64,000 nt of DNA from Pseudomonadota bacterium (GTDB taxonomy: Archaea; Thermoplasmatota; SW-10-69-26; JACQPN01; JAJPHT01): the NCBI GenBank assembly GCA_021325135.1, contig JAJPHT010000020.1, positions 32,001 to 96,000 of the forward strand, read 5' to 3'. Shown piece after piece: positions 1,840 to 41,365 of the stretch. Positions within the stretch are counted from its first letter, which is position 1; each line of letters opens with the position of its first letter. Position numbers and translations under genes: made by a program. Below the pieces are notes generated by a model. It was not told the origin of the DNA, made no database searches, and was given only the letters and a program-made list of their open reading frames with translations.

Positions 1840-2735
1840 GGACCCTCCGCGTCCGCGTCGGCCATTCTCCCGATTCGGCCGAAGCTGCGGCCTCGGCCTC
1901 TCGTGAGCATGGCCTCCGCGTCCGCGTCGGCCATTCTCCCGATCCGGACGACGCCTTCATGGTGTGGGCCCTGCACGCCGGCCTCGTCCGCGAGGATGAT
2001 ATCACCATCGAGCTTGTCCCCAAGGACATCGAGTCCCTGAACCAGATGGCGCTGCGCGGCGAGGGGCCCGAGGCCAGCGCGCTCTCCATGGCGACGTTCG
2101 CCCGCGTCGCGGACACCCACTGGCTCCTGCCCCACGGCGCGTCGTTCGGCGACGGGTACGGGCCCATCGTGGTCGCGCGGGAGGACGTGGACCTGCGGCG
2201 CGTCGCTATCGCGGCGCCCGGCGAGGGCACCACCGCCTACGCGACGCTGAGGATGGCGCTTCCCGGCGCGCGCTGCGTGCAGATGCCCTTCGACGAGATT
2301 CTCCCCGCCGTGCAGCAGGGCAAGGCCGAGGCGGGCCTGCTCATCCACGAGGGGCAGATCACCTGGCAGCGCGAGGGCGTGCGCAGGCTCCTGGACCTGG
2401 GCGTGTGGTGGAAGGGCGAGACGGGCCTCCCCCTGCCGCTGGGCATCAACGCGCTGCGCAAGGACCTGGGCCCTACGCTGGGCGCGCGCGTGAACCGGCT
2501 CCTCGCGCGCAGCGTCGAGGCGGGGCTCGCGCATCGCGCGGAGGCCCTGGAGTACGCACGCGGCTTCGGGCGTGGCCTCCCCACGCAGGACGCCGACACG
2601 TTCGTCTCCATGTACGTCAACGCGCTGACGCGCGACATGGGCGAGCGCGGCCGCGCCGCGGTGGCCGAATGGCTGCGCCGGGCCGCGGACGCGGGGCTCG
2701 TGCCTCGCGGGGCGCGGGTCGAGATGGCTCCTTGA
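1836..2735 (+). CDS. mqnD: 1,4-dihydroxy-6-naphthoate synthase MqnD, with duplicated N-terminal segment
   Basis: GHSPDPDDAFM, DIESLN, GASFGDGYGP, LLIHEGQ, DLGVWW-ETGLPLPLG, MYVN; GTG start overlaps the rlmE stop (GTGA). Confidence 0.9.
   Translation: MRTLRVRVGHSPDSAEAAASASREHGLRVRVGHSPDPDDAFMVWALHAGLVREDDITIELVPKDIESLNQMALRGEGPEASALSMATFARVADTHWLLPHGASFGDGYGPIVVAREDVDLRRVAIAAPGEGTTAYATLRMALPGARCVQMPFDEILPAVQQGKAEAGLLIHEGQITWQREGVRRLLDLGVWWKGETGLPLPLGINALRKDLGPTLGARVNRLLARSVEAGLAHRAEALEYARGFGRGLPTQDADTFVSMYVNALTRDMGERGRAAVAEWLRRAADAGLVPRGARVEMAP
1844..1943 (+). repeat. 31-bp direct repeat (offset 69 bp) inside the mqnD 5' end
   Basis: CCTCCGCGTCCGCGTCGGCCATTCTCCCGAT at 1844-1874 and 1913-1943; spacer contains hairpin GGCCGAAGC-TGCG-GCCTCGGCC. 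Confidence 0.95.
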
Positions 2736-3623: not shown

Positions 3624-6600
3624 GTGGCGCGCCTCGGGCTCGCGGCCAAGCTCGCGCGGCGCAACCTGCTGCGCCGCCGCGCGCAGACCGCCATCGTCCT
3701 CGCCGGGCTCTTGGTGGGCACCGCCGTCGTCGCGGCCTCGCTCTCCGTGGCGGACAGCCTCCGCTACGGCATCCGCCGCTCCACCTTCGACGGGCTGGGC
3801 CCCGCCGACGAGTTCGTCCAGCTTGCGGGCCAGCGCTACTTCCCCGCCGGCGTCTACGACGCGCTGAAGAACGACAGCGCGCTGCGCGGCGCGACGCGCG
3901 GGCTCTCGCCGGTGGTGATCGACTCGGGGAGCGTCCGCGACGCGCGCACCCGCGAGACCGAGCCCGCCGTGGGCATCGCGGGCTTCGACCCCGCCGCGGA
4001 CCGCCCCTTCGGCCTCTTCACGCTCCAGGACGGGCGCCGCACGGACGGCGGCGAGCTTGGGCCGCAGGACGCGTACCTCGCGGAGGACGTCGCGGCGCGC
4101 CTCGACGCGAAGCCGGGCGACACGCTGGTGGTGGGCGTGCAGCGCGCGGGGTTGCCGCTCTCCGACGTGGTGTTCAGCATCCACGGCAACATCTCGGGCG
4201 TGGGCGGCGGCTGCGTCTCGCCCCCGGTGCCTGTTCCCGTCGTCCCCGGCGCGCCCCCCGTGCCGCCCGTCCCGTGCGCCTACACGCCCGACCCGGTGGA
4301 CAACGTCACGTACACGATCCCCGTGGGGCGCGGCGCCGCGCTGCTCACCGTGCTGCTGGAGCCCATCGGAGCCGAGGACTCGCCGACCCGGCCCGATCTG
4401 GATATCATCGCGACCTCGCCCAGCGGCAACCGCACCGAGGCGACGCAGGGGCTTCCCGGCGCGCCCAGCGACCCCGCCGTGCTCCGCATCGAAGGGAATC
4501 GATATCTCGAGCGCGGCGACTGGACGATCCAGGTCACGACCAAGGGGGGCGCGGAGGGCAAGTTCAACGGCGGCATCTTCGTCTCCTACGCGCAGTACGA
4601 CGCCACCGGGCAGGGCGCGGGCGCCGGGGAGACGGTCATCGGCGACGCGGACGCCTCGGCCTACCTCGCGGTGGGCGCCAGCGCCGCGGCGCACGAGAAC
4701 GTCACGCTCAAGGGCATCGTCAAGCGCGAGGGCAAGGGGCAGTTCCTCGGCACGACGGGCCTCTTTCTCAACCTCCCCGGCGCGCAGGCTCTCGTGGGGC
4801 AGCCCGGGCAGGTCAACGCCGTGAAGATGAGCAACGACGGCAGCGTCGAGACGGGCTGGCAGCGCGGCGCCGCCGCGACCGCTGCCGCCACGCGCGTCCT
4901 GGACGCGCAGCGCGCCGCGCACCCGGACGACCCCGTGTACGACCACCTCGCGCCCGCGCCCGTGAAGGCGCTGGGCCTCGCGGGCGCGGAGCAGGAGAGC
5001 AGGTTCTACCGCGACTTCCTCGCCGCCGTCTCCACGCTCACCGTCATCGCGGGCGTGCTGCTGGTGGTCAACGTCTTCGTGCTCCTCGCGCAGGAGCGCC
5101 AGCGCGAGCTTGGCGCCGCGCGCGCCATCGGCCTCTCGCGCGCCGACGTCGTCGCCTCCTTCGTCGTCGAAGGCGCGATCCTCGCCGCCCTCGCCGCGGT
5201 GGGCGGCGTGCTCGTGGGCCTCGTCGGCGCCGCGGGCGTCCTCTTCGGCTTCGACTTCATCCTCAGCGCCGTGGGCACGGGGCTGGGCACGTTCGTTCTC
5301 CATCCCGAGCCCGCGAGCCTCGCCCTCGCGGCGGGGCTCGGCTTCGTCGTGACGCTGGCCGCGGCCGCAGGGGCGTCGTACCGCATCGGCGGCATGAACG
5401 TCGTGCGCGCCCTGCGCGGCCTGGAGGACGACCCCGCCCACCGGCGCGGCGCATGGGCCGGCGCGGCTGCGCTCGTCCTCCTGGCCGTCGTCTCGCTCCT
5501 CCTGGGCCCCTTCGCCGCATGGGCCTTTGCGCCCCCCCTCCTCACGGGCGCCGCCGCGGCGCTCCTCGCGCGCCGTCGCTGGGCCCCGCCGCTGGCGGGG
5601 CTCCTTCTCGTGGCGGAGGGCGGGCTTGCCATCTTCCTCCTCACGCCGCCCGCGGACGCCGTGGGCCGCGTCCTGGGCGTCCTGCGCGGCGTGCCCGTCG
5701 CGCTGGGCCTGACGCTCCTGGCCCTGGGCGCGCCCGCCCTCGCGCGCGGCGCGGAGCGATTGCTATCACGCGTGCGCGCGCTGCGGCCCACCGCGCCCCT
5801 CGCGGTGCGCTATCCCCTCCGCCGCCGCGGGCAGACGGGGCTCACGGTCACGATGTTCGCCTTCGTGACGCTGATCCTCGTCTTCTTCAGCATCTTCGGC
5901 ACGACCTTCGCGCTGGACATCGCGGGCGAGACGGGCGGCTACGACGTGTACGCCACCACCGACGCGCCCTACAGCGACCTGCGCTACGCCTACGACCAGC
6001 AGCCCCCCGGCGCGCGCGACGCCTACGCCCTGGCCAACGTCACCTCGCAGGACCCGCTCCTCGTCGCCACCGTCGCGGGCGGGAGCCTCCTCACGCTGGA
6101 CGGCGCGCGGCCGCACTACAAGGGCGCGCCCGTGGACCGCGTCTTCGCCTCGCTGCCCAGCTTCCCCAAGCGCGAGCAGTTCGCCTTCGCCGAGCTCGAC
6201 CCCGCCTACCCCAACGGCAGCGCCGCCTTCGAGGCCCTCCTCAAGGACCCCACCCTCGCCATCGTCAGCGTCGCATACACGCTCGACGAGACGGGCAACC
6301 CCGGCGCGCACCACGTCGGCGCGGACCTCACGCTCCACTTGGCCACGGGCGACAAGCATCTGCGCGTCATCGGCGTCATGAAGGAGCTCTACCTGGGCGG
6401 CGTGTGGGTGAATCCCCTGGTGCTGCGCACGGGCTTCCAGCAGGTCAGCGGCGGCTACCTCCTCAAGGCCGCGCCGGGCCACGAGCCCGCAGCCGTCGCG
6501 CGGCAGCTGGAGCGCAGCTTCGACGGCACGGGCCTCCACGCGGTCGACCTGCGCACCGAGGCGGGCGTCGTCCTGGAGGAGAACGAGCAGTTCCTCCGCA

Positions 6601-6992
6601 TGTTCCAGATGTTCCTGGGCTTCGGCCTCCTCGTGGGCATCGCGTCGCTGGCGGTCGTCTCCGCGCGCAGCGTGCTGGAGCGCCGCGCCCACATCGGCGT
6701 GCTGCGCGCGCTGGGCCACACGCGCCTCTCCATCCTCACGTGGCTCCTGGGCGAGTCGCTCCTGGTCACCATCCTGGGCACGCTCGTGGGCGTCGCCGCC
6801 GGCTCGCTCCTCGCCTTCGGCGTGTGGTTCACCACCGTGCGCCCCGTCATGGCGGTGCCCTTCGCGTACTCGTACATCGTGATCCCGGTGATCCTCCTCA
6901 TCACGTGGGGCTGCGCGCTGGCGGCCGTCTTCCTCCCGGGATTCCTCGCGACTCGGGCCACGCCCGCCGAGATGGTGCGGCGCGTCGATTGA
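3624..6992 (+). CDS. Double-FtsX (MacB-like) ABC permease with large extracytoplasmic domains
   Basis: RNLLRRR N-terminus; two FtsX motifs ([26 protein letters not shown]); multiple TM blocks; PPC-like insert in the first ectodomain. Confidence 0.88.
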
Positions 6993-8036: not shown

Positions 8037-9122
8037 ATGAAGCTCTGGCCCCTGGTCGTGGGCGCCGTGCTCTTCGTCGCGGGCGTCCAGGCCTGGAGCG
8101 CGGCGGCCCTCCTGCGCGACCGCGCCGAGGAGACCTCCCTGGCCACGCAGCTTGCCGCGGAGCGGGCGCGCTCCCACGCGCTGGCGACGGAGGCGGACCG
8201 CGCGGACGCGCAGCTCCAGGCGGCTCGCGCCGAGGCGGGCGCCCTCTCGGGCGCGCTGGCGGGGAACCAGAGCCGCGCGGCGTCGCTCTCCACCGATCTC
8301 GCTGCGCTGGGGCGCGAGCGCGACGCGGCCCTTGCCCAGGTGAACGCGACCGAGGCGGAGCTGGCCGACGCCAAGGGCGGCATCTTCGACCGGCAGCAGC
8401 TCCTGGGCGAGCTTCAGGCGCAGCGGGCGGACTACGCGGCCCTCGACGCGCGATATCAATCGGCGCTCGATGGCGCGTTCCCGACGCTGGCGAGCATCCA
8501 GGCGGGGAACGTGACGTGGCGCTTCGTGGACGCCGAGGGCGTCGCGCATGCGTGGCGCTACCCCCTGGAGGACTACCAGGCCTACGCGCAGCGGGCGCGG
8601 CCCGACGCGGTGGTCGCCATGCGCACGGCGGACGGGACGATCCTCACGGCGGCGGACCCGCGCCCCTACGTCACGCCCTCGTTCTTCGCCTCCGACATCG
8701 GGGACCTCACCCGGGGGAAGACCGACCGGGAGTTCGTGCGCGACGCGTTCGCGGTGAAGGGCCAGCTGGTGGTCTACGGCTTCGCGCTGGCGGACCAGGA
8801 GGGGCACGCGTACAAGTATCCCGCCGAGACGCTGACCGAGGGGTCGGGCCTCTGCGGCGACACCACCATCCTCCTGGCGAGCCTGCTCCTGGCGGGCGAG
8901 GCGCAGGCCCACTACGGGCTCAGGCTCAAGGTGTGGATCGTGGACGTGGACCCCGAGCGCGCGGTCACGATCGCGGACCCCGAGACGGTGAACCACGCGC
9001 TCCTGGAGGTGGACTTCCGCGACGGCGAGACGTGGGACCTGGAGACCACCACCGCGGGGCTCTACCGGTATCCGGAGGTCCACGGGTGGAGCTTCGACGT
9101 CGAGCCGCCCGCCGGGGCGTGA
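8037..9122 (+). CDS. Membrane-anchored coiled-coil protein with C-terminal transglutaminase-like domain
   Basis: N-terminal TM, ~130-aa heptad-rich helix, then YPAETL-EGSGLCGDTT, NHA, DLETT (Cys-His-Asp type). Confidence 0.7.
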   Translation: MKLWPLVVGAVLFVAGVQAWSAAALLRDRAEETSLATQLAAERARSHALATEADRADAQLQAARAEAGALSGALAGNQSRAASLSTDLAALGRERDAALAQVNATEAELADAKGGIFDRQQLLGELQAQRADYAALDARYQSALDGAFPTLASIQAGNVTWRFVDAEGVAHAWRYPLEDYQAYAQRARPDAVVAMRTADGTILTAADPRPYVTPSFFASDIGDLTRGKTDREFVRDAFAVKGQLVVYGFALADQEGHAYKYPAETLTEGSGLCGDTTILLASLLLAGEAQAHYGLRLKVWIVDVDPERAVTIADPETVNHALLEVDFRDGETWDLETTTAGLYRYPEVHGWSFDVEPPAGA

Positions 9123-9727: not shown

Positions 9728-10621
9728 GTGGAGCGCCCCTCCCGCGCGCGGACGATCCTCGAGTTCGTGAAGATCGAGCACGCCCTCTTCGCGCTCCCCT
9801 TCGTGCTCGCGGGCATGATCGAGGGGTTCCGCGAGCGCGGCGTCCCGCTGCGCCCCACCGCGGAGGGCGCGCGCCTCCTGCTCCTCGTCCTCGTGGCGGC
9901 CGTCTCCGCGCGGACGCTGGCCATGACGCTCAACCGCATCGTGGACCGCGGCCTCGACGCGCGCAACCCGCGCACCGCAGGCCGCGCCATCCCCGCGGGC
10001 CTCCTCTCCACGCGCGCCGCGTGGGCGCTGGCCGCGGTCTCGCTCGTCCTCCTCGTCGCGGCCTCGGCGCTCCTCAACCCCCTGGTGCTGGCGCTGACGC
10101 CCGTCCTCGCGCTCCTCTTCTTCGCCTACCCCTACGCGAAGCGCGTCACCTGGGCGTGCCACTTCGTGCTGGGCCTCGCCTTCCTCTGCGCGCCCGCGGG
10201 CGGCTTCCTGGCGGTGACGGGCTCCTTCGCGGGCTGGACGCGCGTGCTGCCCCTGTCGCTGGCGGCCATGGCGTGGGTGTCCGGCTTTGATATCATCTAC
10301 GCCCTGCTGGACCTCCCCTTCGACCGCGCGAACGAGGTCAGGAGCGTGCCCGCCGTCTTCGGCGAGGGCCCCGCGCGGCGCGTGGCGGTGGGGCTCCACG
10401 TGCTCACCGTGCTCCTCCTCGCCATCTACGCCCGCCTCGCGGGCTTGGGCTGGCCCATGTACCTCGCCGTCGTCGCCATCGCGGCGCTCCTCGCCTACGA
10501 GCACGCGACCGTCGACCCCAGCGACCCGGTGGCCATCAACAAGGCGTTCTTCCAGGTCAACGCCGTCGTGGGCTGGGTCGCGCTGGCGGGCGTCGCCGCC
10601 GCCCTCTGGCTCGCCGCGTGA
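9728..10621 (+). CDS. ubiA: UbiA-family prenyltransferase (MqnP-like)
   Basis: VKIEHALFALPF, NRIVDRGLDARNPRTAGRAIP, YPYAKR, GFDIIYALLD, INKAFFQVN. Confidence 0.9.
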   Translation: MERPSRARTILEFVKIEHALFALPFVLAGMIEGFRERGVPLRPTAEGARLLLLVLVAAVSARTLAMTLNRIVDRGLDARNPRTAGRAIPAGLLSTRAAWALAAVSLVLLVAASALLNPLVLALTPVLALLFFAYPYAKRVTWACHFVLGLAFLCAPAGGFLAVTGSFAGWTRVLPLSLAAMAWVSGFDIIYALLDLPFDRANEVRSVPAVFGEGPARRVAVGLHVLTVLLLAIYARLAGLGWPMYLAVVAIAALLAYEHATVDPSDPVAINKAFFQVNAVVGWVALAGVAAALWLAA

Positions 10622-14509: not shown

Positions 14510-15193
14510 ATGGCCGAAGCGGCGTCGCGCGCCGGGGAGGAGCCTGACGACCTGACCCGCGCGCTGGTGGCGGTGGGGAACCGCACGAGGCTGCGCATCC
14601 TGCACCGGCTCGCGCAGCCGGCGTTCGTCCCCGACCTGGCGCGCGAGATGGGCCTCACGCGCCAGGCGGTGGCGCATCACCTGGAGGAATTGATGGCCGT
14701 GGGCCTCGTGGAGGCGGAGCGCGGCGCGCGCCGGGGCATCCTGCCCGCCACGCGTTACGTCGCCAGCGCGTGCGGCCTCTTCGCGTTCAAGGAGAGCGTG
14801 CTGGGCCTCGCCGTGATGCCCAGCGCGAGGGCGGAGCCGCCGCTGCCCACCCGCCCCCTGGGCCCGGGCCGGGTGGGGAGCGCGTCGCGGGGCGCGGGGC
14901 TCCTCCTCGCCCACGGCGACGCGCCGGGACGGTGGTTCGACCTGCGCGCGGGGACGAGCTGGATCCTGGGGCGCGACGCCAAGGCGGACGTGCGCCTCGC
15001 ATACGATCCCTTCGTGAGCACGCGCCACGCCCACCTGCGCCGCGAGGGGGCGCGCTGGAGCCTCACCGACCTGCACAGCACCAACGGCACGCTGGTGAAC
15101 TTCGAGCCCCTGGACGCGGGCGAGGAGCGCGAGGTCGAGCCGGGCGACCTGCTCACGGTGGGAAGGAGCCGGCTTCTCCTGCGGAGCCCGTGA
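14510..15193 (+). CDS. ArsR-like winged-HTH plus FHA domain regulator
   Basis: RLRILHRL..DLAREMGLTRQAVAHHLEELMAVGLV; FHA motifs LGR, VSTRHA, DLHSTNGTLVN, GDLLTVG. Confidence 0.9.
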   Translation: MAEAASRAGEEPDDLTRALVAVGNRTRLRILHRLAQPAFVPDLAREMGLTRQAVAHHLEELMAVGLVEAERGARRGILPATRYVASACGLFAFKESVLGLAVMPSARAEPPLPTRPLGPGRVGSASRGAGLLLAHGDAPGRWFDLRAGTSWILGRDAKADVRLAYDPFVSTRHAHLRREGARWSLTDLHSTNGTLVNFEPLDAGEEREVEPGDLLTVGRSRLLLRSP

Positions 15194-15197
15194 TAGC

Positions 15198-17150
15198 TTG
15201 GACGCCATCGCCCTGGCCTTCGCGGCGGACCTGGCCCTCGGGCTCTTTCTCCTGGCGCTGGCCGCCCTGGCGCCAAGGGCCGCGCGTCCCGGCCCCTCGC
15301 GCTGGCTCCTGGCGGCCTACCTTGCCCTCGTGGGGCTCGACTACGTCTCGGACGGCCTGGCGCGGCTGCTGGACGTGAAGACCCACACCCCGCTGCTCGA
15401 TTGGCTCTCCATCGGCACGCAGGCGCTCGACCCGCCCGTGCTCTTCCTCTTCGCCCTGGCCGTGACGGGCGCGCGGGTGCGGTGGTCCCGCGCGCTCCCC
15501 GCGTGCGCCGGGATCCTCCTCGTCACGTTCCGGCCGCAGCTTCTGGGCATCCCCGTGCAGGTCGGGCCCTTCGCCTACGCGGCCGTGGCGCTGGCGGCCT
15601 ACGTCGGGAGCTTCGCCCTCCTGGCGCGCAGCCACCTCGCGGCCGCCGATGGCGACGAGCGCGAGCCGCGCGGCGTGCTGGTCGTCGCCTTCGGCGTCGT
15701 GTGCCTCACGCGAGTTCCCCTGGCGCTCATCGACTTCCGCATCCTGCCCGTCGGGCCGCCCGGCCGGCAGGGAAGCGCCAGCTGGATGCTGGAGGCCCTT
15801 CTCTTCGGCGCGTTCGTCGCCTTCGCGCTGCTCTCGCGCGCCTTCGCCCGGCCCTCCGCGTGGCCCCACGCCCGCCGCGTCCTCATCGCCACCGGAGCGC
15901 TGCTCACGGTCCTGGATGGCGAGTGGCTGCTGCGGTTCGTCCCCTACCTCCAGGCGCCCTCCTACGCGCTGCTCTGGTCGGCGCGGTGGTTCCTCTTCCT
16001 TGCCGTCGTCATCGCGGGGCTGCGCCGCCACGACCTGCTCGGGCTCTCCGCCACCGTGGCGCCTTGGCTGCGCAGGACGTATGCGGCGCTCCTTGGCGTC
16101 GTGGCGGCCGTGCTCGCCGCCTCCTTCGCGCGGGCGCTCCCGGGCGTGTCGGACCTGGGCGCGGCCGCAGCCGGCGCCGCCGTGGTGGGCGCGGGGGTGG
16201 GCGCCGGCTTCGCCATCCGCGCGGCGGTGCCCAGGACGCCTTCGGAGGCCGAGTGGCGGCGCGCCGCCGTCTATCGCGCGCACCTGGCGCTGGGCTCGCC
16301 GCCTGCGGAGCTGGACGCCGCTCGCCGCGAGCTTGGCCTCTCGGAGCGGGAGGCGCGCGCCATCGCGAGCGCCTTCCGCGTGGAGCGGGAGGTCCCCGCC
16401 GACGCGCTGCCGGAGCGCGTGGAGCCCGGCCACGTCCTCCTGGGCCGCTATCGCGTGGAGCGGGTGCTGGGCGTGGGCGCCTTCGGCCGCGCCTACTCCG
16501 CCGTGGACCTTGCCGAGGAGCGTCGCGTCGTCCTGAAGGAGTTGCTCCCGTCGTGGCGCGGAGACGAGGAGGCCCTCGCCCGGTTCCTCCGCGAGGCGGA
16601 GGTCGCGCTGCGCGTCCGCCACCCCAACCTCGTGGGGCTGCGCGGCATCGAGCGGCTCGCCTCGGGGCACGTCCTGGTGCTGGACCACGTCGAGGGCGAG
16701 ACGCTCGCGGCGCGCCTGGCCCGCGGACCCCTGGAGGAGGCGGAGTCGCGCCGCCTCGCCCGGGACGTCCTGGAGGCGCTCGACGCCCTGCATCGGCGCG
16801 GCATCCTGCATCGCGACGTGAAGCCCGAGAACGTCATGCTGCGGCCCGACGGCTCCGCGGTGCTGCTGGACTTCGGCGCCGCCACGGCCCCCGGGACCGG
16901 CACGCGCCCCGCGCTGGGCCACCCCGGCACGCCGGGGTACGCGAGCCCCGAGCAGCGCCGCGGCGAGCCTTTGGCCCCCTCCAGCGACCTCTATGGCGTG
17001 GGCGCGCTCCTGTGGCGGGGCCTCACCGGCGAGCCGCACCCTCGGGGCCGGGCGCCTCCGTCCTGGGCCGCGCCCCTGGCGAAGGCCACCTCGCCGCGCC
17101 CGGAGGATCGATATCAGGACGCGGACGCGTTCCTCGCCGCCCTCTCGTGA
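15198..17150 (+). CDS. Multi-pass membrane Hanks-type Ser/Thr protein kinase
   Basis: ~8-9 hydrophobic segments, then GVGAFG, VVLKE, HPNLV, HRDVKPEN, DFG, GTPGYASPEQ, SDLYGVG. Confidence 0.92.
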   Translation: MDAIALAFAADLALGLFLLALAALAPRAARPGPSRWLLAAYLALVGLDYVSDGLARLLDVKTHTPLLDWLSIGTQALDPPVLFLFALAVTGARVRWSRALPACAGILLVTFRPQLLGIPVQVGPFAYAAVALAAYVGSFALLARSHLAAADGDEREPRGVLVVAFGVVCLTRVPLALIDFRILPVGPPGRQGSASWMLEALLFGAFVAFALLSRAFARPSAWPHARRVLIATGALLTVLDGEWLLRFVPYLQAPSYALLWSARWFLFLAVVIAGLRRHDLLGLSATVAPWLRRTYAALLGVVAAVLAASFARALPGVSDLGAAAAGAAVVGAGVGAGFAIRAAVPRTPSEAEWRRAAVYRAHLALGSPPAELDAARRELGLSEREARAIASAFRVEREVPADALPERVEPGHVLLGRYRVERVLGVGAFGRAYSAVDLAEERRVVLKELLPSWRGDEEALARFLREAEVALRVRHPNLVGLRGIERLASGHVLVLDHVEGETLAARLARGPLEEAESRRLARDVLEALDALHRRGILHRDVKPENVMLRPDGSAVLLDFGAATAPGTGTRPALGHPGTPGYASPEQRRGEPLAPSSDLYGVGALLWRGLTGEPHPRGRAPPSWAAPLAKATSPRPEDRYQDADAFLAALS

Positions 17151-26777: not shown

Positions 26778-27719
26778 ATGGCGCTCCTCCCGGTGGGGTG
26801 GGTCCCGAAGCTGGAGCTGCTCGTCATCGCCGCGGGCCTCGCCTACGTCCTGCGCCCCGCTGTGCCCAAGGCCTACGCGCTGGGCATCCTCATGCTCGCC
26901 GTCTACGCGCTGGACGTCGTGGGCGGCCTGCTGGGCCAGGGGAGCGTCACGCCGGAGCTTGGCTTCCGCGCGGACCGCCTCCTCCACGGCGACGCGTGGT
27001 GGACGCCCGTCACCGCGATGTTCGTCCACGCCGGGCTCGCCCACCTCGTGGGCAACCTGTTCATCCTCCTCACCGCGGGCCCCGCGCTGGAGGACCGCGT
27101 CGGCGAGCGCAAGTTCCTCGTCATCTTCTTCGCCGCCGGCCTCGCCGGCTTCGCCGCGCACGCGATCCTGGCGTACACGACGACCATCGTCACGCCCGGA
27201 GAGCTGGCCGTGGGCGCGTCGGGCGCCATCTTCGGCGTGCTCACCGCCTTCGCGCTGCGCCACCCGCGGGAGCGCCTGCCGCTGATCATGCTCTTCGTGC
27301 TCTGGCTCCCCGCCATCGCGGTCCTGGGCATCTACCTCGTCTACAACGTCGCGCTCATGTTCCTGGACAGCGGCGTCGCGTGGTGGGGCCACTTCGCCGG
27401 CTTCCTCGTGGGCATGGCCTTCGCGTACACGCTCCCCCGCGTCGACCCGCGCTCGCCCGTGGGGCGCAGGCCCCGCGTGGACGCCGAGAAGCTGGCGCCC
27501 TACGCCACGACGCCCGAGACCCGCCGCATCGTCGAGCAGGTGCGCACGCTGAGCACCGGCACGCCCACCAAGGACGACGCCGTCTTCGCCGACGCCTGGG
27601 TGGATCGCTTCTTCTCCAAGGCCACCTGCCCCCAGGGGCACGCCTTCACGCGCTCCGGGACGCACGCCACCTGCTCTGGAGGCGAGACGACGGTGGAGTT
27701 CGCGCGGGCCGCGAAATGA
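26778..27719 (+). CDS. Rhomboid family intramembrane serine protease
   Basis: WTPVTAMFVHAGLAHLVGN, GASGAIFG (Ser), GHFAG (His). Confidence 0.92.
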   Translation: MALLPVGWVPKLELLVIAAGLAYVLRPAVPKAYALGILMLAVYALDVVGGLLGQGSVTPELGFRADRLLHGDAWWTPVTAMFVHAGLAHLVGNLFILLTAGPALEDRVGERKFLVIFFAAGLAGFAAHAILAYTTTIVTPGELAVGASGAIFGVLTAFALRHPRERLPLIMLFVLWLPAIAVLGIYLVYNVALMFLDSGVAWWGHFAGFLVGMAFAYTLPRVDPRSPVGRRPRVDAEKLAPYATTPETRRIVEQVRTLSTGTPTKDDAVFADAWVDRFFSKATCPQGHAFTRSGTHATCSGGETTVEFARAAK

Positions 27720-27732
27720 TATCTCCATTCGC

Positions 27733-27841: not shown

Positions 27842-27854
27842 ACCAGAGCAGTCA

Positions 27855-28367
27855 TCACCGCCGCTGCGCCGCCAGGTAGTCCACCACGCGGGAAGCCAGA
27901 GCCCGCGCGTCCCGCGTCGCCTTGAGGTCCATGAGGATCTCGCCCTCGCGCGCGGCGCGGCCCACGACGTACCCGACGAAGGCCATGCGGTGGACGGCGA
28001 AGAAGTGGGCGAGACCCATGCAGGCCAGCTCGCCGCCGCTCTCGGACTCCACCGCGAGGGCCGCGCCGACCTTGCCTTCGAACGCGCCGCGCCGGGCGTC
28101 CTCCCACGTCGCGTCCAGGAGGGCCTTGAGGCGCGCGGCGGGCATGCCGAAGTGGCTGGGCGTCCCCAGGAGGATCGCGTCGGCCTCGCGCATCTTGGCC
28201 GTGATGATATCAAAGGCGTCCGTATTGCGCCGGCCGGGCGCGCCGTAGTCCGCCAGCGCGACGAGGTCCACCTGCGCGCGGCCGCGCACGGCCTTCAGCG
28301 CCTCGTCCAGGAGGACCGTGGTGTTGCCCTTCGCCCGGGGGCTGCCGGAGATCGCCAGGACCCTCAT
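27855..28367 (-). CDS. Flavodoxin-like NAD(P)H-dependent FMN reductase
   Basis: ISGSPRAKGNT, ADAILLGTPSHFG, GKVGAA. Confidence 0.85.
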   Translation of the reverse strand: MRVLAISGSPRAKGNTTVLLDEALKAVRGRAQVDLVALADYGAPGRRNTDAFDIITAKMREADAILLGTPSHFGMPAARLKALLDATWEDARRGAFEGKVGAALAVESESGGELACMGLAHFFAVHRMAFVGYVVGRAAREGEILMDLKATRDARALASRVVDYLAAQRR

Positions 28368-32476: not shown

Positions 32477-34129
32477 TCAAGCTATGCTCCCGGCGTCCAG
32501 CGCGAGACCCAGGGGGCCCCACGCCTGCTGCGCCTGCGCGGCGGCGGCGCGCGCGTCGGCGCCGGGGGCAAGCGGCGCCACCACCACGGCGCCCAGGGGC
32601 TTGCCCGCGCCTGCCACGAGGCTGGCGCTGCTCCACGCGACGTCCGCGGGGCCGCCCTCCACGGATTCCACCGCGACGGCGACGCGCCCCACGCGGTCGT
32701 CCCCCAGGACGAGGCGAGTCGTGAGCAGCGTGCCCGGGGCCCAGTCCGGGGTTGATAGCACGAGCGTGCGCGAGCGGGTGACGTTGTCCAGCGCGGCCTG
32801 CGCGCTGGGCCAGCGCCCTCCGGGGGGCATGCTCCAGGGGGGATCGCCCGGCCCGCCGAAGGCGAGGAGCCGCAGGCCGGGGACGGGGCGCGACTCCGCA
32901 GCGGCGATCTCGCCCACGGGCGTCTCCAGCATGGCGGCCAGCGAGGGCGCGGCGAGCCCGGGGACCGGAGGCAGCTTCGCGACGTCCACGTCCAGGGGCG
33001 CGCGGAAGAGGAGCGCGCCCTTCGCGGCGGGGGCGGGCCCGGGGCCTTGAGGCGCGGGGCGCGCGCGCAGGCCCAGGGCGACGGCGTCCGCGCTGCGGTT
33101 GCGCGCGTCGGAAAGCGCAGGCAGGAGGGCGGGCGAGGCGACGACCACGAGCCCCGAGGCCTCGTCGGCGCGCGCTCCCGTGAGGCGCTGCGCGTCGGCG
33201 GGGGTGAGGAGGGCGACGCCCGCGGGGATCGCGCGCTCGACGAGGCGCGAGACGCGGAGCGTCGCCTGCTCGTCGCGGCCCCATGATAGCAATTCCCGCG
33301 TCTGGGCCGGGCCGTCGGGCTCGACCACGAGGCGGTCGTCGAACCACGTGTAGCCCGGCTCGCGCACGCGCACGATGCCCGCCGCCGCGCCGTTGAGCGT
33401 CGTCTTGTTGCTCTCCAGGCGGAAGCGGATCGTCCACGCGCCGGGCGCGATCGGCCCGTCCACCGTCGCGAGCGTGGGGCGCGCCAGTTCGTCCAGCGTC
33501 GCGTTCCACGGGGTGCGCTCGCCCGAGGGGCTCTCGAAGGAGCCGTTCCACCACGCGGGCAGGCCTCCAGGGCCAAGCTCCGCGCCTTCGGGGATGAACG
33601 CGAGGTCCTGCGAGTCGGGCGGCACCGCGAGGCGGATCGCGAGCTGGCCGCCCTCGGGCGGAAGGAAGCAGACGGTCGCCGTGGGCGTCCTGTCGCACGG
33701 GCGGATGCGTTCCATCTCGTAGCCCGCGGTCACGAGAGGCTTGGGGAACGTCGAGGCGCGCAGCGCGAGCGCGTCCCCCGCCGCGAGGCCGTTCGCGCGG
33801 GCCCACGTCCCGTTGAGCGCGATCTCTCCTGGGGCGGGCGGGTCCAGGGCGCCCGTGGCGTCGAGCGCGCGCGCCGCGCCCAGGTCCAGCGAGGCGAAGT
33901 CCAGCGCGAAGGGCTCGCCGTGGGCCGTGGCGACGCCGCCGCCGAACCATGCGGCGCCCGCGGCGGAGGGGCCCTGCGCGTCGGCGAGGAGGCCCCGCAT
34001 GCTCGCCTCGGGGAGGGGCCAGCGCCCGTCGACGGCGAGGAGCATGGGCCCGGCGGGCGCGTCGCCCGCCTTGGGCGCGCTGCACCCCGCGAGGAGGGCC
34101 AGGACCAGGAGGGGCCGGAGGGCGCGCAA
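32477..34129 (-). CDS. Lipoprotein resembling the MacB-type permease ectodomains, without TM segments
   Basis: Lipobox LLAGC; blocks colinear with the 3624-6992 ectodomains (ESPSGERT vs TSPSGNRT; GAWTI vs GDWTI). Confidence 0.7.
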   Translation of the reverse strand: MRALRPLLVLALLAGCSAPKAGDAPAGPMLLAVDGRWPLPEASMRGLLADAQGPSAAGAAWFGGGVATAHGEPFALDFASLDLGAARALDATGALDPPAPGEIALNGTWARANGLAAGDALALRASTFPKPLVTAGYEMERIRPCDRTPTATVCFLPPEGGQLAIRLAVPPDSQDLAFIPEGAELGPGGLPAWWNGSFESPSGERTPWNATLDELARPTLATVDGPIAPGAWTIRFRLESNKTTLNGAAAGIVRVREPGYTWFDDRLVVEPDGPAQTRELLSWGRDEQATLRVSRLVERAIPAGVALLTPADAQRLTGARADEASGLVVVASPALLPALSDARNRSADAVALGLRARPAPQGPGPAPAAKGALLFRAPLDVDVAKLPPVPGLAAPSLAAMLETPVGEIAAAESRPVPGLRLLAFGGPGDPPWSMPPGGRWPSAQAALDNVTRSRTLVLSTPDWAPGTLLTTRLVLGDDRVGRVAVAVESVEGGPADVAWSSASLVAGAGKPLGAVVVAPLAPGADARAAAAQAQQAWGPLGLALDAGSIA

Positions 34130-35521: not shown

Positions 35522-38500
35522 TTGACCGCCGATCCCAACCGCCGCGCCCGGGCCGCCATCGCCGCCCTCCTCTTCCTCCTCCCCGCCGGGAGCGCCCTCC
35601 TCCACGTGGCCGACGCGGCCAGCGGGACCAACGTCGTCACCGACCCCGCGGGCGACAACACGGGCGGCGGCCCCCAGGCGGACGTGCTCCGCGTGGGCGC
35701 CAGCAACGACGCCTCCAAGCTCTACTTCTACGTCGAAGTGGGTAGCACGTCGCCCCCCGCGGCGGACGTCGAGTACCAGGTGGACTTCACCGCGCCCGGC
35801 CAGCCCCCCTCGGCCCGGCAGTACAGCATCGTTGCGACCTACAGCGCGTCGGGCTCCATGGGCCCCGCCACGCTGGACTTCCTCACCGACGTCACGGGCT
35901 CCAGCGCGCGCACCGAGCAGGCCTCCATCGTGGGCGACGAGATCGTCTTCGCCATGAGCCGCGCCGACGTGAGCAGCCCGCCCACGGGCGCGACGTTCAC
36001 CGCCATCGACGCGCTGACCTACCCGCCCGCCGACCCCACCACCACGTGGGACGACACCTCCAGCGGCTCCTACACCATGGCGGCGCCCACGCCGGCCACG
36101 CCCAGCGCGCCCTCCATCACCGGCGCCGCGGGCAGCCCCTCCAGCGTCGCGCTCTCGTGGAGCGCGCCCGCCAGCAGCGGCTCCTCCTCCGTGACCGGCT
36201 ACAAGGTGTACCGCGGCACGACCAGCGGCGGCGAGACCCTGCTCGCCACGCTGGGCAACGTGCTCAGCTACGCCGACTCCGCCGTCTCCGCGGGCCAGAC
36301 CTACTTCTACCAGGTCAGCGCGGTGAACTCCGCGGGCGAGGGCCCCCGCAGCGCCGAGGCCTCCGCCACCGTGGCCGCGCCCACGCTGCCCGGCGCGGTG
36401 CAGGGCCTCTCCGCCACCGCGGGCGATGGCAAGGCCACGCTCTCGTGGAGCGCGCCCGCCAGCGACGGCGGGAGCCCCATCACGGCCTACCAGGTCTTCC
36501 AGGGCAGCGCGCCGGGCGCCGAGGGCCCCACGGCCGTCGCCACCGTCGCCGGCGCCAGCGCCACCCTCACGGGCCTCGCCAACGGGCAGACCTACTACTT
36601 CCGCGTCCGCGCGCAGAACGCCGTCGGCCTCGGCCCCGAAGGGAGCGAGGTCACGGTGACGCCGTCGCTCGCCGACGCGCCCACCGCGTTCGAGGACTAC
36701 CACAACACGCTGGGCGACACCTCCAGCGCGGGCGAGCCCAGCCTCGGCGTCGACCAGGAGACCGGCGCGGTCCTCTACACCTCGGGCTTCAACACGTACA
36801 AGATCACCAACCTGCGCCCCAACGCCGACGCGCGGACGCCGGGCGCCGCGACGTGGGCCGACGTGAGCAACGTCAAGTTCGCGCCCACCGTGCTGGGCGA
36901 CCCCATCGGCTGGCTCGACCGCCACACCAACCGCTTCTTCCAGGCCGAGCTCCTCGTGCCGCCCGACTGCAGCCAGATGGGCTACACGGACGACGGCGGC
37001 GCCACCTGGAACGTGAGCGACGGCTCGTGCAACACGCCCAACGGCGAGGACCACGAGACCGTGGGCGGCGGCCCCTTCCACGGCGAGAAGGGCCCTCAGC
37101 TTGGCAGCGCGTACCCCGACTCGGTCTACTACTGCACGCAGGCCAACGCGCTGGCCACGTGCGCCGTCTCCGAGGACGGCGGCGTGACGTTCCAGCCCGC
37201 CCGCGTCATCTACCACACGATCCTCAACCAGAACACCATCGCCACGGCGGACGGCGCGGACCCCTCGGGCTTCTGCTTCAACCTGCATGGCCACGTGAAG
37301 GTCTCGCCCACCGGCATCGCCGCGGTGCCCAACAAGAACTGCTACACCACGGGCTCCCAGGAGACGAAGGGCGGCGTCACGACGTCGGACGACGGCAACA
37401 CGTGGCGCATCTTCTCCATCCCCAGCAGCACGCAGGACCCCAACGGCGGCGACGACGACCCCAGCCTCGACTGGAGCCAGTCCCGCGCGCCGGGCGCCAC
37501 GCACGACCGCCTCTGGTACGGCTACTACGACGGCGACCACCACATGAAGATCGCCCACAGCGACGACCTGGGCGCGACGTGGTCCCCGAGCTTCGACGTG
37601 GGCGCCAGCCTCGGCCTCGTGAACACCAAGTTCCCCGAGGTCGTCGCAGGCGACTGGGACCGCGCCGCCATCGCCTTCCTGGGCTCCGCCACCGCGGGCG
37701 ACAACCAGGCCTCCGGCTTCAACGGCGTCTGGCACCTCTACGTCGCGACCACCTACGACGGCGGCCAGACGTGGACCACCGTCAAGGCCAGCACGGACCC
37801 TGTGCAGAAGGGCTGCATCAGCATGGGCGGCACCACCAGCAGCACGTGCCGCAACCTGCTTGACTTCATGGACGCGCAGCTGGACGCCACCGGCCATGTC
37901 GCGGTCGCCTACCCCGACGGGTGCGAAGGCGCCTGCGCCGCGGACGAGAACCCGCACGCGTGGTCCTCCTCCTACAGCAACGACGCGGCGCCCGCCCTGG
38001 CCTACCAGAGCGGCGGCCGCGGCCTGCTCTCCGCCTTCGACACGTCGAAGACCGTCCCCGCGGCGCCCGTCATCATGGCCTCCGCGGGCAACGGCCTCGT
38101 GCGCCTCCAGTGGGCGCCGCCCAACGACGGCAACAGCCCCATCACGGGCTACCTCGTCGAGCGCGACGGCTCGCTCCTCGCCACGCTGGGCGCGGTCGCG
38201 AGCTTCGAGGACCGCAGCGTCGCCAACGGCGCGACCTACGGCTACCAGGTGGCCGCCATCAACTCCGTGGGCACCGGCGCCCTGAGCGCGCCCGTCTCCG
38301 CGACGCCCTTCTTCGACGACCAGGCGCCCACGCAGGTCACGGACCTCCAGGCCAGCGCGGCGGCGGACCACGCCATCTCGCTCCTTTGGGACGCCTCCAG
38401 CGACGACCACGGCGTCGACCACTATGATATCATCCGCGACGGCGCGGTGGTCGCCAGCGTCAGCAGCGCCACGACGGCGTTCGCGGACTCGGGCCTCCAG

Positions 38501-41365
38501 AACGGCCGCGCGTACGGCTACCGCGTCGTCGCGGTGGACGCCAGCGGCAACGCGGCGCCCGAGAGCGACGCGGTCACCGCGAAGCCCGTCCGCACCCTCT
38601 CCGCGGCCCTCGTGGCGGCGGACGGGACAGGGGACGCGACCGGCGGGGCGCCCGCAAGCGCGGACCTCCAGGGCGCGGGCCTGGGCTACGACGGCAGCAA
38701 CCTGCGCGTCGAGTGGCCCATCGCCGACCTCGCGGCCGCGCCCACGACGATCCGCCACGACATGGCGTTCACCATCAACTCGCAGAACTACGTCTTCGAG
38801 TACGAGCGCGGCGGCACGCGCTGCAATCTCTACACGCAGACCAGCGCCGCGGGCTTCGACCCCGTCGCCAACGCCAACCCGTACACCTGCGGCGTGGACG
38901 CGGCGCGCGGCGTCGTCTGGGGCCTCGTGCCCAACGCCGCGCTGCGCAACGTCCTCGTGGCGGGCGCGCAGGTCACCGGCGTCTCCGCCGACACCTGCAT
39001 GCTGGACACCTCCAGCGGCGGCGTCACGGGCCTCTCGTGCTACTCGCCCCCCCGCGGCGACCGCGCGCCCGACGCCGGCTCCGCGACCTACGTCGTGGGC
39101 ACGCCCAACTCGGCGGGCCACGTCGTCATGGGCGGCCTCGGGGACCAGGCCGGCGCCGAGGGCAGCCTGGTATCGTTCCAGGTGCCCGCGACGAGCCCCG
39201 AGGGCGACAAGGTCGCCTTCTCGGCGACCGGCCTCCCCGCCGGCGCGACGCTGGACCCCGACACGGGCGCCTTCTCGTGGACGCCCACCTTCGCGCAGGC
39301 GGGCCGCTACCCCGTGACGCTCACGGCGGACGACGGCGCGGCCAGCGCGACGAAGGCGATCAACCTCACCATCGCCAACGTCGACCGCGCGCCAGTCCTC
39401 GACGCGGTGGCCGACCAGACGGTGGCGGGCGGCTCGTCCCTCGCGCTGGCGCTCCACGCCACCGACGCGGACGGCGACGCGCTGACCTACGGCGGCGCCA
39501 ACCTGCCGCCCGGCGCCACGGTGGACGCCGCGACGGGCGCCTTCCGCTTCGCGCCCCCGGCCCACGCCGCCGCGAGCTACCCCGGCGTCGTGCTCTCCGC
39601 CTTCGACGGCGAGAAGTACGGCAACCAGACCTTTGATATCATGGTCACGGACGTGGAGACGGCGCCCGCGCTGGACGCCATCGCGGACCAGACCGTGGCC
39701 GAGGGCGGCTCCATCGCCTTCCAGGCGCGCGCGACGGACGCCGAGGGCGACGCGCTCGCCTACGCCATCGAGGGCGCGCCGGAGGGCGCCTCCTTCGACC
39801 CGCAGACGGGCGCCTTCTCCTACGCGGCGCCCTTCGCGACGGGCCACGACTCGCCCGCCTACGCGCTGCGCGTCACGGTCAGCGACGGCGAGCAGAGCGC
39901 GGAGCGCGACCTCACGCTCACCGTGGCGGACGTGGACCGCGCGCCGGCCTTCGGCCCCCTGGAGAACGTGAAGGTCAACGAGACGGAGCCCATCTCCTTC
40001 CCGGTGAGCGCCACCGACGCGGACCTCGACGCGGTGACGCTCTCCGCGGACAGCCTCCCCGAGGGCGCGACGTTCGACGACGGCCAATTCTCCTGGACGC
40101 CCACCTTCGACCAGTCGGGCAACTACCCCGTCGCGTTCCACGCGTCGGACGGCATCGCCACGACGACGCGCACGGTCATCCTCACCGTGGGCGCCGTCGA
40201 CCGCGCGCCCATCTTCGACGCGACGCCCGACCAGGCCGGCGCCGAGGGGAGCTTGCTGTCGTTCGCCGTCCACGCCGCGGACCCCGACGGCGACGCGGTG
40301 GCCTACCACGCCACGGGCCTGCCCCAGGGCGCGACGCTGGACGCGCAGACGGGCGCCTTCTCGTGGACGCCCGGCTTCACGCAGGCGGGCAGCTACGCGG
40401 TGACGTTCACCGCCAGCGACTCGCAGCTCTCGGTCAACGAGACGGTGGCCCTCGCCATCGCCGACGTGGACCGCGCGCCCGTCGTCGCGCCCCCGCAGGC
40501 GGTCAACGTCCTGGAGGGCACGCCCATCCAGCTCGTCGTCCACGCGGCGGACCCCGACGGCACCGCGGTCGCGCTGAGCGCGGCCGGCCTCCCAGAGGGC
40601 GCGACGTTCGCGGACCACGGCGACGGCACCGGCAGCTTCGCGTGGACCCCCGCGCCCGGCGCGCACGGCGCCTACGCGCCCTCGTTCACGGCGACGTCCA
40701 ACGGGCTTTCGGGCTCCGCGACGCTGGGCCTCACGGTGCGCTTCCGCGCGAACTTCACGGTGGACGCCACGGACCCCACGACGATCCACGCCTCGCCCGG
40801 CCAGGCGGTCGACCTCGACGCGGTGGTGACGAACCTCGGCGTCGAGCCCGACTCGTTCTCCTTCGGCCTCGCGCAGACGCAGGCCTGGGGAGGCGCCGCC
40901 CCCGCGACGACGAACCTCGCCGCGGGCGAGAGCCGGCACGTGACGGTCCACCTGGTGGCGCCCGCCAGCGGCACCCTCGACCGCGTGAACCTCACCGTCT
41001 CGTCGCTGGGCCAGCCCGGCGCATCGAAGACGGCGAGCTGGACCGCGGACGTGCCGCTGGTGCTCAGCGTGCGCCTTGACAGCGCAAGCCTGCACCCCTG
41101 GCAGCGCCCCGCGGGCGTCGTGCGCGCCACGCACCTCGACGGCTCCCCCGCCGCGGGCGTGGCCGTGACCCTCGCCCAGGCCTCGGACGCGCTGGCCCTG
41201 GCGGCCTCCACGCTCTCGGGCCACGCGGACGCCAACGGCCTGTGGTTCTTCGACTTCGGCAGCGACGCCATGGCGCGCGCCCCCGGCAGCCACACCCTGG
41301 CCGCCACGGCGGGCCTCGCCGGCGTCGCGCCCACGCGCGTCGCCACGGCCTACACCGTCGGCTAG
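35522..41365 (+). CDS. Large secreted multidomain protein (beta-sandwich, FN3 x2, BNR propeller, FN3 x2, beta-sandwich, 6 putative-Ig/cadherin-like repeats)
   Basis: LSWSAPAS..Y.Y.V.A.N FN3 motifs; Asp-boxes; six ATD.DGD..GLP.GA..TG.FSWTP repeats. Confidence 0.88.
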   Translation: MTADPNRRARAAIAALLFLLPAGSALLHVADAASGTNVVTDPAGDNTGGGPQADVLRVGASNDASKLYFYVEVGSTSPPAADVEYQVDFTAPGQPPSARQYSIVATYSASGSMGPATLDFLTDVTGSSARTEQASIVGDEIVFAMSRADVSSPPTGATFTAIDALTYPPADPTTTWDDTSSGSYTMAAPTPATPSAPSITGAAGSPSSVALSWSAPASSGSSSVTGYKVYRGTTSGGETLLATLGNVLSYADSAVSAGQTYFYQVSAVNSAGEGPRSAEASATVAAPTLPGAVQGLSATAGDGKATLSWSAPASDGGSPITAYQVFQGSAPGAEGPTAVATVAGASATLTGLANGQTYYFRVRAQNAVGLGPEGSEVTVTPSLADAPTAFEDYHNTLGDTSSAGEPSLGVDQETGAVLYTSGFNTYKITNLRPNADARTPGAATWADVSNVKFAPTVLGDPIGWLDRHTNRFFQAELLVPPDCSQMGYTDDGGATWNVSDGSCNTPNGEDHETVGGGPFHGEKGPQLGSAYPDSVYYCTQANALATCAVSEDGGVTFQPARVIYHTILNQNTIATADGADPSGFCFNLHGHVKVSPTGIAAVPNKNCYTTGSQETKGGVTTSDDGNTWRIFSIPSSTQDPNGGDDDPSLDWSQSRAPGATHDRLWYGYYDGDHHMKIAHSDDLGATWSPSFDVGASLGLVNTKFPEVVAGDWDRAAIAFLGSATAGDNQASGFNGVWHLYVATTYDGGQTWTTVKASTDPVQKGCISMGGTTSSTCRNLLDFMDAQLDATGHVAVAYPDGCEGACAADENPHAWSSSYSNDAAPALAYQSGGRGLLSAFDTSKTVPAAPVIMASAGNGLVRLQWAPPNDGNSPITGYLVERDGSLLATLGAVASFEDRSVANGATYGYQVAAINSVGTGALSAPVSATPFFDDQAPTQVTDLQASAAADHAISLLWDASSDDHGVDHYDIIRDGAVVASVSSATTAFADSGLQNGRAYGYRVVAVDASGNAAPESDAVTAKPVRTLSAALVAADGTGDATGGAPASADLQGAGLGYDGSNLRVEWPIADLAAAPTTIRHDMAFTINSQNYVFEYERGGTRCNLYTQTSAAGFDPVANANPYTCGVDAARGVVWGLVPNAALRNVLVAGAQVTGVSADTCMLDTSSGGVTGLSCYSPPRGDRAPDAGSATYVVGTPNSAGHVVMGGLGDQAGAEGSLVSFQVPATSPEGDKVAFSATGLPAGATLDPDTGAFSWTPTFAQAGRYPVTLTADDGAASATKAINLTIANVDRAPVLDAVADQTVAGGSSLALALHATDADGDALTYGGANLPPGATVDAATGAFRFAPPAHAAASYPGVVLSAFDGEKYGNQTFDIMVTDVETAPALDAIADQTVAEGGSIAFQARATDAEGDALAYAIEGAPEGASFDPQTGAFSYAAPFATGHDSPAYALRVTVSDGEQSAERDLTLTVADVDRAPAFGPLENVKVNETEPISFPVSATDADLDAVTLSADSLPEGATFDDGQFSWTPTFDQSGNYPVAFHASDGIATTTRTVILTVGAVDRAPIFDATPDQAGAEGSLLSFAVHAADPDGDAVAYHATGLPQGATLDAQTGAFSWTPGFTQAGSYAVTFTASDSQLSVNETVALAIADVDRAPVVAPPQAVNVLEGTPIQLVVHAADPDGTAVALSAAGLPEGATFADHGDGTGSFAWTPAPGAHGAYAPSFTATSNGLSGSATLGLTVRFRANFTVDATDPTTIHASPGQAVDLDAVVTNLGVEPDSFSFGLAQTQAWGGAAPATTNLAAGESRHVTVHLVAPASGTLDRVNLTVSSLGQPGASKTASWTADVPLVLSVRLDSASLHPWQRPAGVVRATHLDGSPAAGVAVTLAQASDALALAASTLSGHADANGLWFFDFGSDAMARAPGSHTLAATAGLAGVAPTRVATAYTVG

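Follow-up and report, generated by a model that had tools for sequence, protein, structure and literature searches.

A highly iterated AT-rich palindrome in one GC-rich Thermoplasmatota genus, a probable archaeal counterpart of HIP1

Palindrome sites in the 64-kb window

The stretch of DNA analysed here, hereafter the window, is 64 kb long and belongs to a Thermoplasmatota MAG of 3.77 Mb, 51 contigs and 72% GC (G000 in the comparisons below). The host is an archaeon, its closest relatives being uncultured Thermoplasmatota/Thermoplasmata archaeal MAGs. Bacterial-looking genes (MacB/FtsX, HisKA, the futalosine pathway) are numerous in this archaeal genome.

Nine exact copies of one short word lie in the window: five of the palindrome TGATATCA, to which no strand is assigned, and four of a variant, TGCTATCA/TGATAGCA. 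The first palindrome (1997..2004) is written as GAT GAT ATC ACC in an MqnA-like gene (1959-2732), and a plus-strand copy of TGCTATCA (5761..5768) occupies the rare codons TTG CTA TCA of a MacB/FtsX-like gene (3624-6989). The UbiA gene holds a palindrome as TTT GAT ATC ATC (10288..10295), at a position where its orthologues display the graded states CGACATCA, CGATATCA and TGATATCT. The plus-strand variant at 19895..19902 is read by a minus-strand gene as CTT GAT AGC ATT, with TGCTGTCG or TGCTATCG in the orthologues. Another minus-strand gene spells TTT GAT ATC ATC at 28205..28212, the sole site of the window that is exactly shared with the congener G002. Two minus-strand variants follow, as GTG CTA TCA (32753..32760) and TTG CTA TCA (33284..33291), and two further palindromes lie in the gene of a 1947-aa Ig/He_PIG surface protein, as TAT GAT ATC ATC (38425..38432) and TTT GAT ATC ATG (39634..39641).

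These nine sites had been picked out by an earlier, sequence-only reading of the window, and we find every one of them where it was reported. Its further observations that all nine are intragenic and that they force unusual codons (TTT GAT ATC three times, TTG CTA TCA, CTT GAT AGC ATT) likewise hold, the former by our own gene calls. Chance does not account for such a number: dinucleotide shuffles of the window contained on average 0.05 copies of TGATATCA and 0.24 of the variant, and none of 100 shuffles reached the observed five and four, respectively. Seven additional copies, all of them instances of the core 7-mer described below, had been listed as single mismatches. Four are indeed one step off TGATATCA, namely GGATATCA at 4400..4407 (plus strand; a full TGATATCA at this position in G002), CGATATCA at 8451..8458 and 17109..17116 (both plus strand), and TGATATCT at 27717..27724 (minus strand), the last in non-coding DNA at the edge of a hairpin repeat element. 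The remaining three, at 15191..15198, 19336..19343 and 49330..49337 (all minus strand), read TGATAGCT, equal to AGCTATCA on the minus strand at 15191, and are one step off the variant instead.

Other regularities of the window do not extend beyond it. While each of the nine sites is preceded by A or T, this is true of just 49% of sites genome-wide. Similarly, the apparent confinement of exact sites to the first 40 kb disappears on the contig, which carries nine further sites directly upstream of the window and eight downstream; at the site density of the genome, a site-free run of 24 kb, as found towards the end of the window, is nothing unusual (p ~0.07).

An over-represented word at the level of double-stranded DNA

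How exceptional is this word in the genome as a whole? Across the 3.77 Mb we count 210 sites of TGATATCA and 151 of the variant TGCTATCA/TGATAGCA. Among the 6,165 8-mers of this genome with six A/T positions, TGATATCA ranks far first (420 counts over both strands, where the median 8-mer has 3), and its excess over eight compositionally identical control words, which average ~0.75 sites each, is ~280x. In a comparison of all 8-mers, it is the top word of the genome by z-score. A count against codon-shuffled, amino-acid-preserving sequences had been proposed as a check by the sequence-only reading, and the excess persists in it: when synonymous codons were shuffled within each of 3,681 genes predicted by a codon-statistics caller, so that proteins and codon usage were kept, 1.9 +/- 1.2 copies of TGATATCA were left in coding DNA as compared to 155 observed (83x), and 6.6 copies of the variant as compared to 127. 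Strictly non-coding DNA contains 23 sites where 0.96 are expected. Overall, this amounts to about one palindrome per 18 kb.

The word has an internal structure. Its core is G(A/C)TATCA, preceded by T more often than A, C and G, in this order, and 1,062 copies of this 7-mer are present with both strands counted, or about one per 3.5 kb. One-step variants of the palindrome are enriched 4-11x if the change affects an outer position, and mostly occur at ~1x or less if it affects an inner one, the exception being the A->C half-site variant, an asymmetric word that is enriched in both of its orientations (16x and 31x). Certain inner near-matches are in fact depleted, with one GGTATCA where 19 are expected and three GATACCA instead of 21. 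The palindrome itself is enriched 85x, ~4.5-fold beyond the ~19x predicted from the product of its two halves, in keeping with a word that is recognised symmetrically. The double variant TGCTAGCA occurs at no site genome-wide, probably because CTAG itself is strongly avoided here.

Within genes, the word is read as xxT GAT ATC Axx (137 sites), xTG ATA TCA (18) and xTG CTA TCA (78), and the core 7-mer additionally in the frame xG(C/A) TAT CAx. Many of the nominally intergenic sites make use of the stop codon TGA, often as TGATATCATG stop-start junctions. A protein- or RNA-level cause, be it a favoured Asp-Ile peptide, a codon-pair preference or an mRNA signal, might be suspected from the X-Asp-Ile-X reading of 88% of the coding palindromes. 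The four reading frames, however, encode the unrelated peptides D-I, L-S, I-S and Y-H/Q, the word also occurs in non-coding DNA and at stop codons, and the Asp-Ile dipeptide itself is not enriched (0.85x). Moreover, sense and antisense strands are equally enriched, whereas GAA-TTG, an example of a true codon-pair effect in this genome, is in excess on the sense strand alone. Strand symmetry and the multiple frames thus rule out a peptide or codon-pair effect, and we regard any explanation at the protein or RNA level as extremely improbable.

Several other roles for the word were considered and rejected. A longer repeat element is not supported, as the flanks of the sites show no conserved sequence and codon periodicity alone. 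As to promoters, upstream regions do have an AT/T-rich peak at positions -35..-26 relative to the start codon, yet copies of the word do not accumulate in it. An off-frame stop (‘ambush’) role would not fit a T before GAC that alone is not enriched (15 vs 16.5). Nor do the sites look like deaminated remnants of a methylated GACGTC/CGACGTCG precursor, given that the single-step products are not enriched and TGATATTA/TAATATCA occur 0 times.

The pressure towards the word is strong. We find it complete in 137 of the 481 codon quartets of the type X-Asp-Ile-(A-starting), corresponding to 37% of those in which X can end in T, and the quartets behave in an all-or-none fashion (CC 184, TT 137, CT 30, TC 15). 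Tyrosine before a CA-codon is encoded by TAT in 69% of cases after xGC and 98% after xGA, compared to 2–7% in other contexts. The word hence fills 37–98% of the codon contexts that permit its core. Codons starting with A are also over-frequent after Asp-Ile (29.9% vs 18% overall), and therefore the protein sequence itself appears bent towards the word. Since the word opposes the base composition of the genome, nearly every copy is a visible and costly choice, paid for in rare codons or even altered amino acids.

The earlier proposal that synonymous changes, including transversions, converge on one palindrome is supported by these data and those on turnover below, with the addition that amino-acid changes converge as well. 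The convergence of all three kinds of change therefore argues for a double-stranded DNA word that is recognised or selected as such, rather than for a codon or peptide effect. In this respect, the suggestion of a selected protein-binding site stands in part, in the form of a DNA recognition word that is selected or driven; the part that made it an origin-near parS/matS/SMC-loading mark for chromosome organisation does not, as set out in the next section.

Genus limit, turnover and placement on the chromosome

The enrichment has a sharp phylogenetic boundary. Five species of the genus contain 53–378 palindromes and 430–1,656 core 7-mers, as opposed to 2–5 and 32–108, respectively, in four sister genera of the same family, whose counts are close to those of their control words. 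Relatives at the order and class level are at background, and elsewhere in the phylum the word occurs at 1–5x relative to words of the same composition, with just a few distant, less GC-rich members reaching 4–5x.

Inside the genus, individual sites come and go. Of the family sites that fall within 174 kb aligned between G000 and G002, its closest congener at ~80% identity, 10 of 43 and 10 of 29 are common to both genomes (23–34%, against 25% for any 8-mer window), and with occupancy this high, sharing may also reflect repeated independent gain. A five-species pile-up on the window shows sites to be mostly lineage-specific, with graded intermediates at 10288, 19895 and 21912. Non-shared sites differ between the two congeners at 3.5 of 8 positions, as compared to 2.1 for other differing 8-mers (p<5e-5) and a flank divergence of 23%. 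Most sites were gained by two to six clustered substitutions, with single gains that include five or six changes within 8 bp, and examples comprise a switch between serine codon families (TCC->AGC) as well as Pro->Ile, Ala->Thr/Asn, Asp->Lys and Val->Ile replacements. Such recent, clustered and lineage-specific gains imply that the pressure is active in each lineage.

The word is also selective with respect to the history of the DNA that carries it. In the 270 genes with GC3 <0.90 (219 kb), family sites are absent against an expectation of 20 (p ~2e-9), and none of their 19 permissive quartets is converted, as compared to 39% elsewhere (Fisher p=1.3e-4). The word is thus missing from genes that look foreign or recently acquired and accumulates in long-resident DNA.

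Does the word mark a particular place on the chromosome? Sites are found on nearly all 51 contigs with Poisson-like spacing (CV 0.94, against 0.99 +/- 0.07 for random placement) and without an excess of close pairs. The two Orc1/Cdc6 genes reside on contigs C45 and C35 and none on the contig of the window, and 0 and 4 sites lie within 20 kb of them where about 4 are expected. The sequence-only reading had placed the exact sites around an ORB cluster; the window's two long hairpins (23.7 and 27.7 kb), which possibly are that cluster, turn out to be members of a dispersed family of ~35 copies, and with no site excess at Orc1/Cdc6 either, this association is not upheld. ParB_N was found solely on the atypical contig C29 of G000 and was not found in G002, even though the latter assembly is 99% complete and has the most sites of the genus (378).

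Known parS, matS, Noc and SlmA sites are 12–16 bp long, number from a few to ~70, are positionally structured relative to ori/ter and are conserved across wide taxa. An uncharacterised archaeal protein that binds TGATATCA as a site of this kind, for chromosome organisation, segregation or SMC loading, would be in keeping with a palindromic sequence, as preferred by dimeric DNA-binding proteins, and with a dispersal over the chromosome like that of Noc or SlmA sites. An SMC gene is present in the window (52983-56573), and a role in nucleoid structure has been proposed for HIP1 itself (PMC5861425), the iterated palindrome of cyanobacteria discussed below. Yet, the sites are neither clustered nor origin-associated, no ParB_N homologue is common to the genus, copies number in the hundreds to >1,000 with permissive positions saturated, and an enrichment limited to one genus with rapid turnover is unlike conserved segregation sites. 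We accordingly consider a chromosome-organisation or segregation site to be quite unlikely, and its specific form as a parS, matS or SMC-loading mark to be unsupported in view of the random spacing, the location of Orc1/Cdc6 elsewhere, the lack of a shared ParB_N, the one-genus limit and the mostly lineage-specific sites. The word does not mark any one locus. In annotation, clusters of TGATATCA in these genomes should not by default be taken for origin or operator marks.

Candidate agents and comparison with known systems

If the word is recognised, what recognises it? Our search for an agent covered methyltransferases, nucleases, repair and competence proteins. No Dam/EcoRV-type methyltransferase (PF02086) was found in this genome. 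Methyltransferases of PF01555, PF00145 and PF02384 are strain-specific or shared with motif-poor sister genera; in particular, β-class (SPPY, N4-cytosine-like) and C5 enzymes are either strain-specific or common to the motif-poor genera at 58–63% identity, and N6_Mtase matches are weak or not specific to the genus. Across the family, we found no genus-specific methyltransferase that tracks the word. Vsr genes adjoin strain-specific C5 methyltransferases and are present in this genome only. Canonical MutS was not found, with weak matches everywhere, and the search for an EcoRV-like endonuclease, a weak one in that the control genomes also lacked a match, gave none. ComEC and DprA had a match in 0/9 genomes of the family. 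Taken together, none of the Dam/EcoRV-type, N6/N4, C5, N6_Mtase, EcoRV, Vsr, MutS, ComEC, DprA or ParB candidates follows the motif across the family. A restriction-modification target does not fit, as the site is enriched rather than avoided; palindromes that truly are avoided in this genome include TACGTA, CTCGAG and AAGCTT.

For HIP1, Elhai is said to have proposed a methylation-linked mismatch-repair ratchet. A ratchet of this type, or any other sequence-biased repair or mutation that turns near-matches into the word, could have produced TGATATCA as a functionless by-product. Many sites did in fact arise through C->T/G->A transitions in precursors of the CGACATCA or CGACGTCG type, spacing is random, the motif accumulates solely in DNA that has been resident for long, and the depletion of GGTATCA and GATACCA is what conversion predicts. 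The clustering of one-step variants at outer positions, too, is as in HIP1 (PMC4390886). On the other hand, transversions and multi-step changes (CTC TCG -> CTA TCA, Ser TCC -> AGC, Pro -> Ile) are common, intermediates one step away, TGACATCA among them, are about as frequent as expected (15 vs 16.5), amino-acid changes must overcome purifying selection, and the search above turned up neither a canonical MutS nor a genus-specific methyltransferase, with Vsr in this strain alone. On balance, a pure by-product appears doubtful, albeit the most serious of the alternatives.

The uptake sequences of Haemophilus (USS) and Neisseria (DUS) are asymmetric 9–12-mers that depend on ComEC/DprA-type competence machinery. 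A comparable signal for DNA uptake or self-recognition, like the USS of Pasteurellaceae and the DUS of Neisseriaceae, might have spread through biased uptake followed by recombination. Consistent with this, ~1,000 core copies lie in both orientations and in preferred frames within genes, and the word is clade-specific and missing from foreign-looking genes. What speaks against it is the asymmetry of the known signals, in contrast to a word that is favoured in its full palindromic form more than its halves predict; the failure to find ComEC/DprA in any of the nine family genomes weakens rather than excludes the idea. To our knowledge, neither an uptake signal nor an uptake machinery has been described in archaea. 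While HIP1 has lately been linked to transformation efficiency (10.1101/2024.09.10.611283; PMC13756078), we judge an uptake signal improbable in the present case.

We therefore favour, at a probability of roughly 60%, the reading that TGATATCA, as the optimum of a family with the core G(A/C)TATCA, is a highly iterated word of one GC-rich Thermoplasmatota genus and the archaeal, AT-rich counterpart of HIP1. The genus as a whole would possess an agent that recognises the word in a sequence-specific manner, probably a DNA-binding or DNA-modifying protein acting as a symmetric dimer, and each copy would gain a fixation advantage in resident DNA. This could come about in two ways: a high density of the word may be useful in a genome-wide DNA transaction, as an own-DNA mark for recombination or repair, a role lately suggested for HIP1, or in nucleoid structure, or near-matches may be converted to the word. 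Between a selected function and a conversion-type drive, we lean slightly to the former. More tentatively, and as a possibility only, a novel genus-wide system might install or strongly select TGATATCA in resident DNA as a ‘self’ mark for recombination, repair or DNA exchange. As the sister genera are without the word, the agent could be traced by comparing the gene repertoires of motif-rich and motif-poor genomes.

For some 30 years, highly iterated palindromes have been a puzzle, and nearly all documented cases are cyanobacterial. The sharp genus boundary and the many young, lineage-specific gains described here make the origin of such words tractable by comparative and experimental means. 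If the ‘self’-mark system proves true, it would provide the first mechanistic handle on the rise of highly iterated palindromes in archaea and, by extension, in cyanobacteria. A full-text literature search yielded no publication that treats TGATATCA as an iterated word, nor any on HIP1-like words in archaea; as candidate palindromes of a like kind in this domain, we note AGGCCT in nanohaloarchaea and GGAGCTCC in Methanococcus aeolicus.

How does the word compare to better-known systems? It is palindromic like the sites of parS/ParB, Noc-NBS, SlmA-SBS and MatP-matS, which are bound by dimers, as may hold for the present word, and dispersed over the chromosome like Noc and SlmA sites. It is set apart from all of them by its hundreds to ~1,000 randomly spaced sites, their fast turnover and the lack of a shared ParB. 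Uptake sequences resemble it more closely in being short words with ~1,000 copies in both orientations, placed within genes in preferred frames and specific to a clade, where USS/DUS form ‘dialects’ and are thought to be spread by drive. They differ in that TGATATCA is palindromic and competence machinery was not found in nine genomes of the family.

The closest parallel is HIP1 (GCGATCGC), an octameric palindrome of cyanobacteria that is 15–300x over-represented (PMC5861425) and whose one-nucleotide deviants are biased to the first and last positions (PMC4390886). HIP1 is conserved between related genomes beyond neutral expectation and has a periodic spacing of 10–90 kb (PMC5861425). It is tied to orphan methyltransferases, and proposals to explain it comprise selection for nucleoid structure, a mismatch-repair ratchet and, lately, transformation or recombination (PMC4390886, PMC5861425, 10.1101/2024.09.10.611283, PMC13756078). 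Both HIP1 and TGATATCA are 8-bp palindromes over-represented many-fold, spread through genes and spacers, written by codon choice and specific to a clade; both also have one-step variants biased to outer positions. In contrast to HIP1, TGATATCA has an archaeal host, tolerates a half-site variant (TGCT for TGAT), is enriched within a single genus with motif-poor sister genera, and had no cognate methyltransferase among the families searched. It is also an AT-rich word in a genome of 72% GC, so that its absolute density is lower than that of HIP1, limited by the number of codon contexts that permit it.

Local clusters of the word and a separate sense-strand bias

Where do the palindrome TGATATCA and its one-step variant (the motif family, core G(A/C)TATCA) crowd together? 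The densest cluster in the genome packs five motif-family words into 95 bp (locus L105:2576-2672, corresponding to G000:C33:188576-188672), covering a 62-bp spacer along with the stop of an unknown 144-aa gene on one side and the start of a small MTS-type methyltransferase gene on the other. Another cluster was seen upstream of an NMD3 gene (L106, ~3400-3475). Tandem pairs of CTGATATCAG-like words, spaced 14–15 bp, were found directly 3′ of a tRNA-Asn gene (L107:2234-2256) and of a tRNA-Leu gene (L108:1958-1979).

Glu-Leu is frequently spelled GAA TTG (GGAATTGG, 77 vs 3.2; for example at window ~60700) and GAG CTT (AGGAGCTT, 240 vs 38) throughout the genome. As this enrichment is confined to the sense strand, it arises at the level of codon pairs or mRNA and is a different phenomenon from the TGATATCA word.

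Avoided words, methyltransferases and contig C46

Across the whole genome, CTAG is under-represented ~13-fold (749 sites) by a rough base-composition estimate, and TACGTA, CTCGAG, AAGCTT, and CGTACG are avoided 3–6-fold relative to a maximum-order Markov expectation. The avoidance of CTAG may be linked to an orphan β-class methyltransferase that occurs family-wide and carries an SPPY (N4-cytosine-type) motif (G000:C40:132877-133554). In this strain, two gene pairs each encode a C5-methyltransferase and a Vsr endonuclease (G000:C8:39295-40792 and G000:C27:116672-118609); Vsr had no match in the closest congener, G002, nor in the three sister-genus genomes searched. Extra methyltransferase genes are present on contig C46 (216 kb), which has a lower GC content (68.4%; mean GC3 0.90) and a 4-fold lower motif density. 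This contig may represent a plasmid, an island, or bin contamination, the assembly having a contamination rating of 5.6%.

Repeats and hairpins in the window

Directly downstream of the SMC gene (window 52983-56573) lies a palindrome of tandem CGCCACGA-type heptads and octads (52873-52961), relatives of which were found on ~20 other contigs. Repeats also occur within coding sequence: A gene at 12715-14451 with GGCGGCAAC-type repeats of 9-nt period encodes a Gly/Asn-rich protein without a Pfam match, and the neighbouring gene (35522-41362) encodes a 1947-aa He_PIG/fn3/Big_9 surface protein.

The sequence-only reading had mentioned an ‘ORB cluster’ in this window, and its source may be a pair of near-perfect hairpins (23666-23780 and 27717-27857), each 110–140 bp long with arms of ~50 nt and a loop of 11–15 nt. 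Both are members of what looks like a MITE/REP-type family, with roughly 35 copies scattered over the genome.
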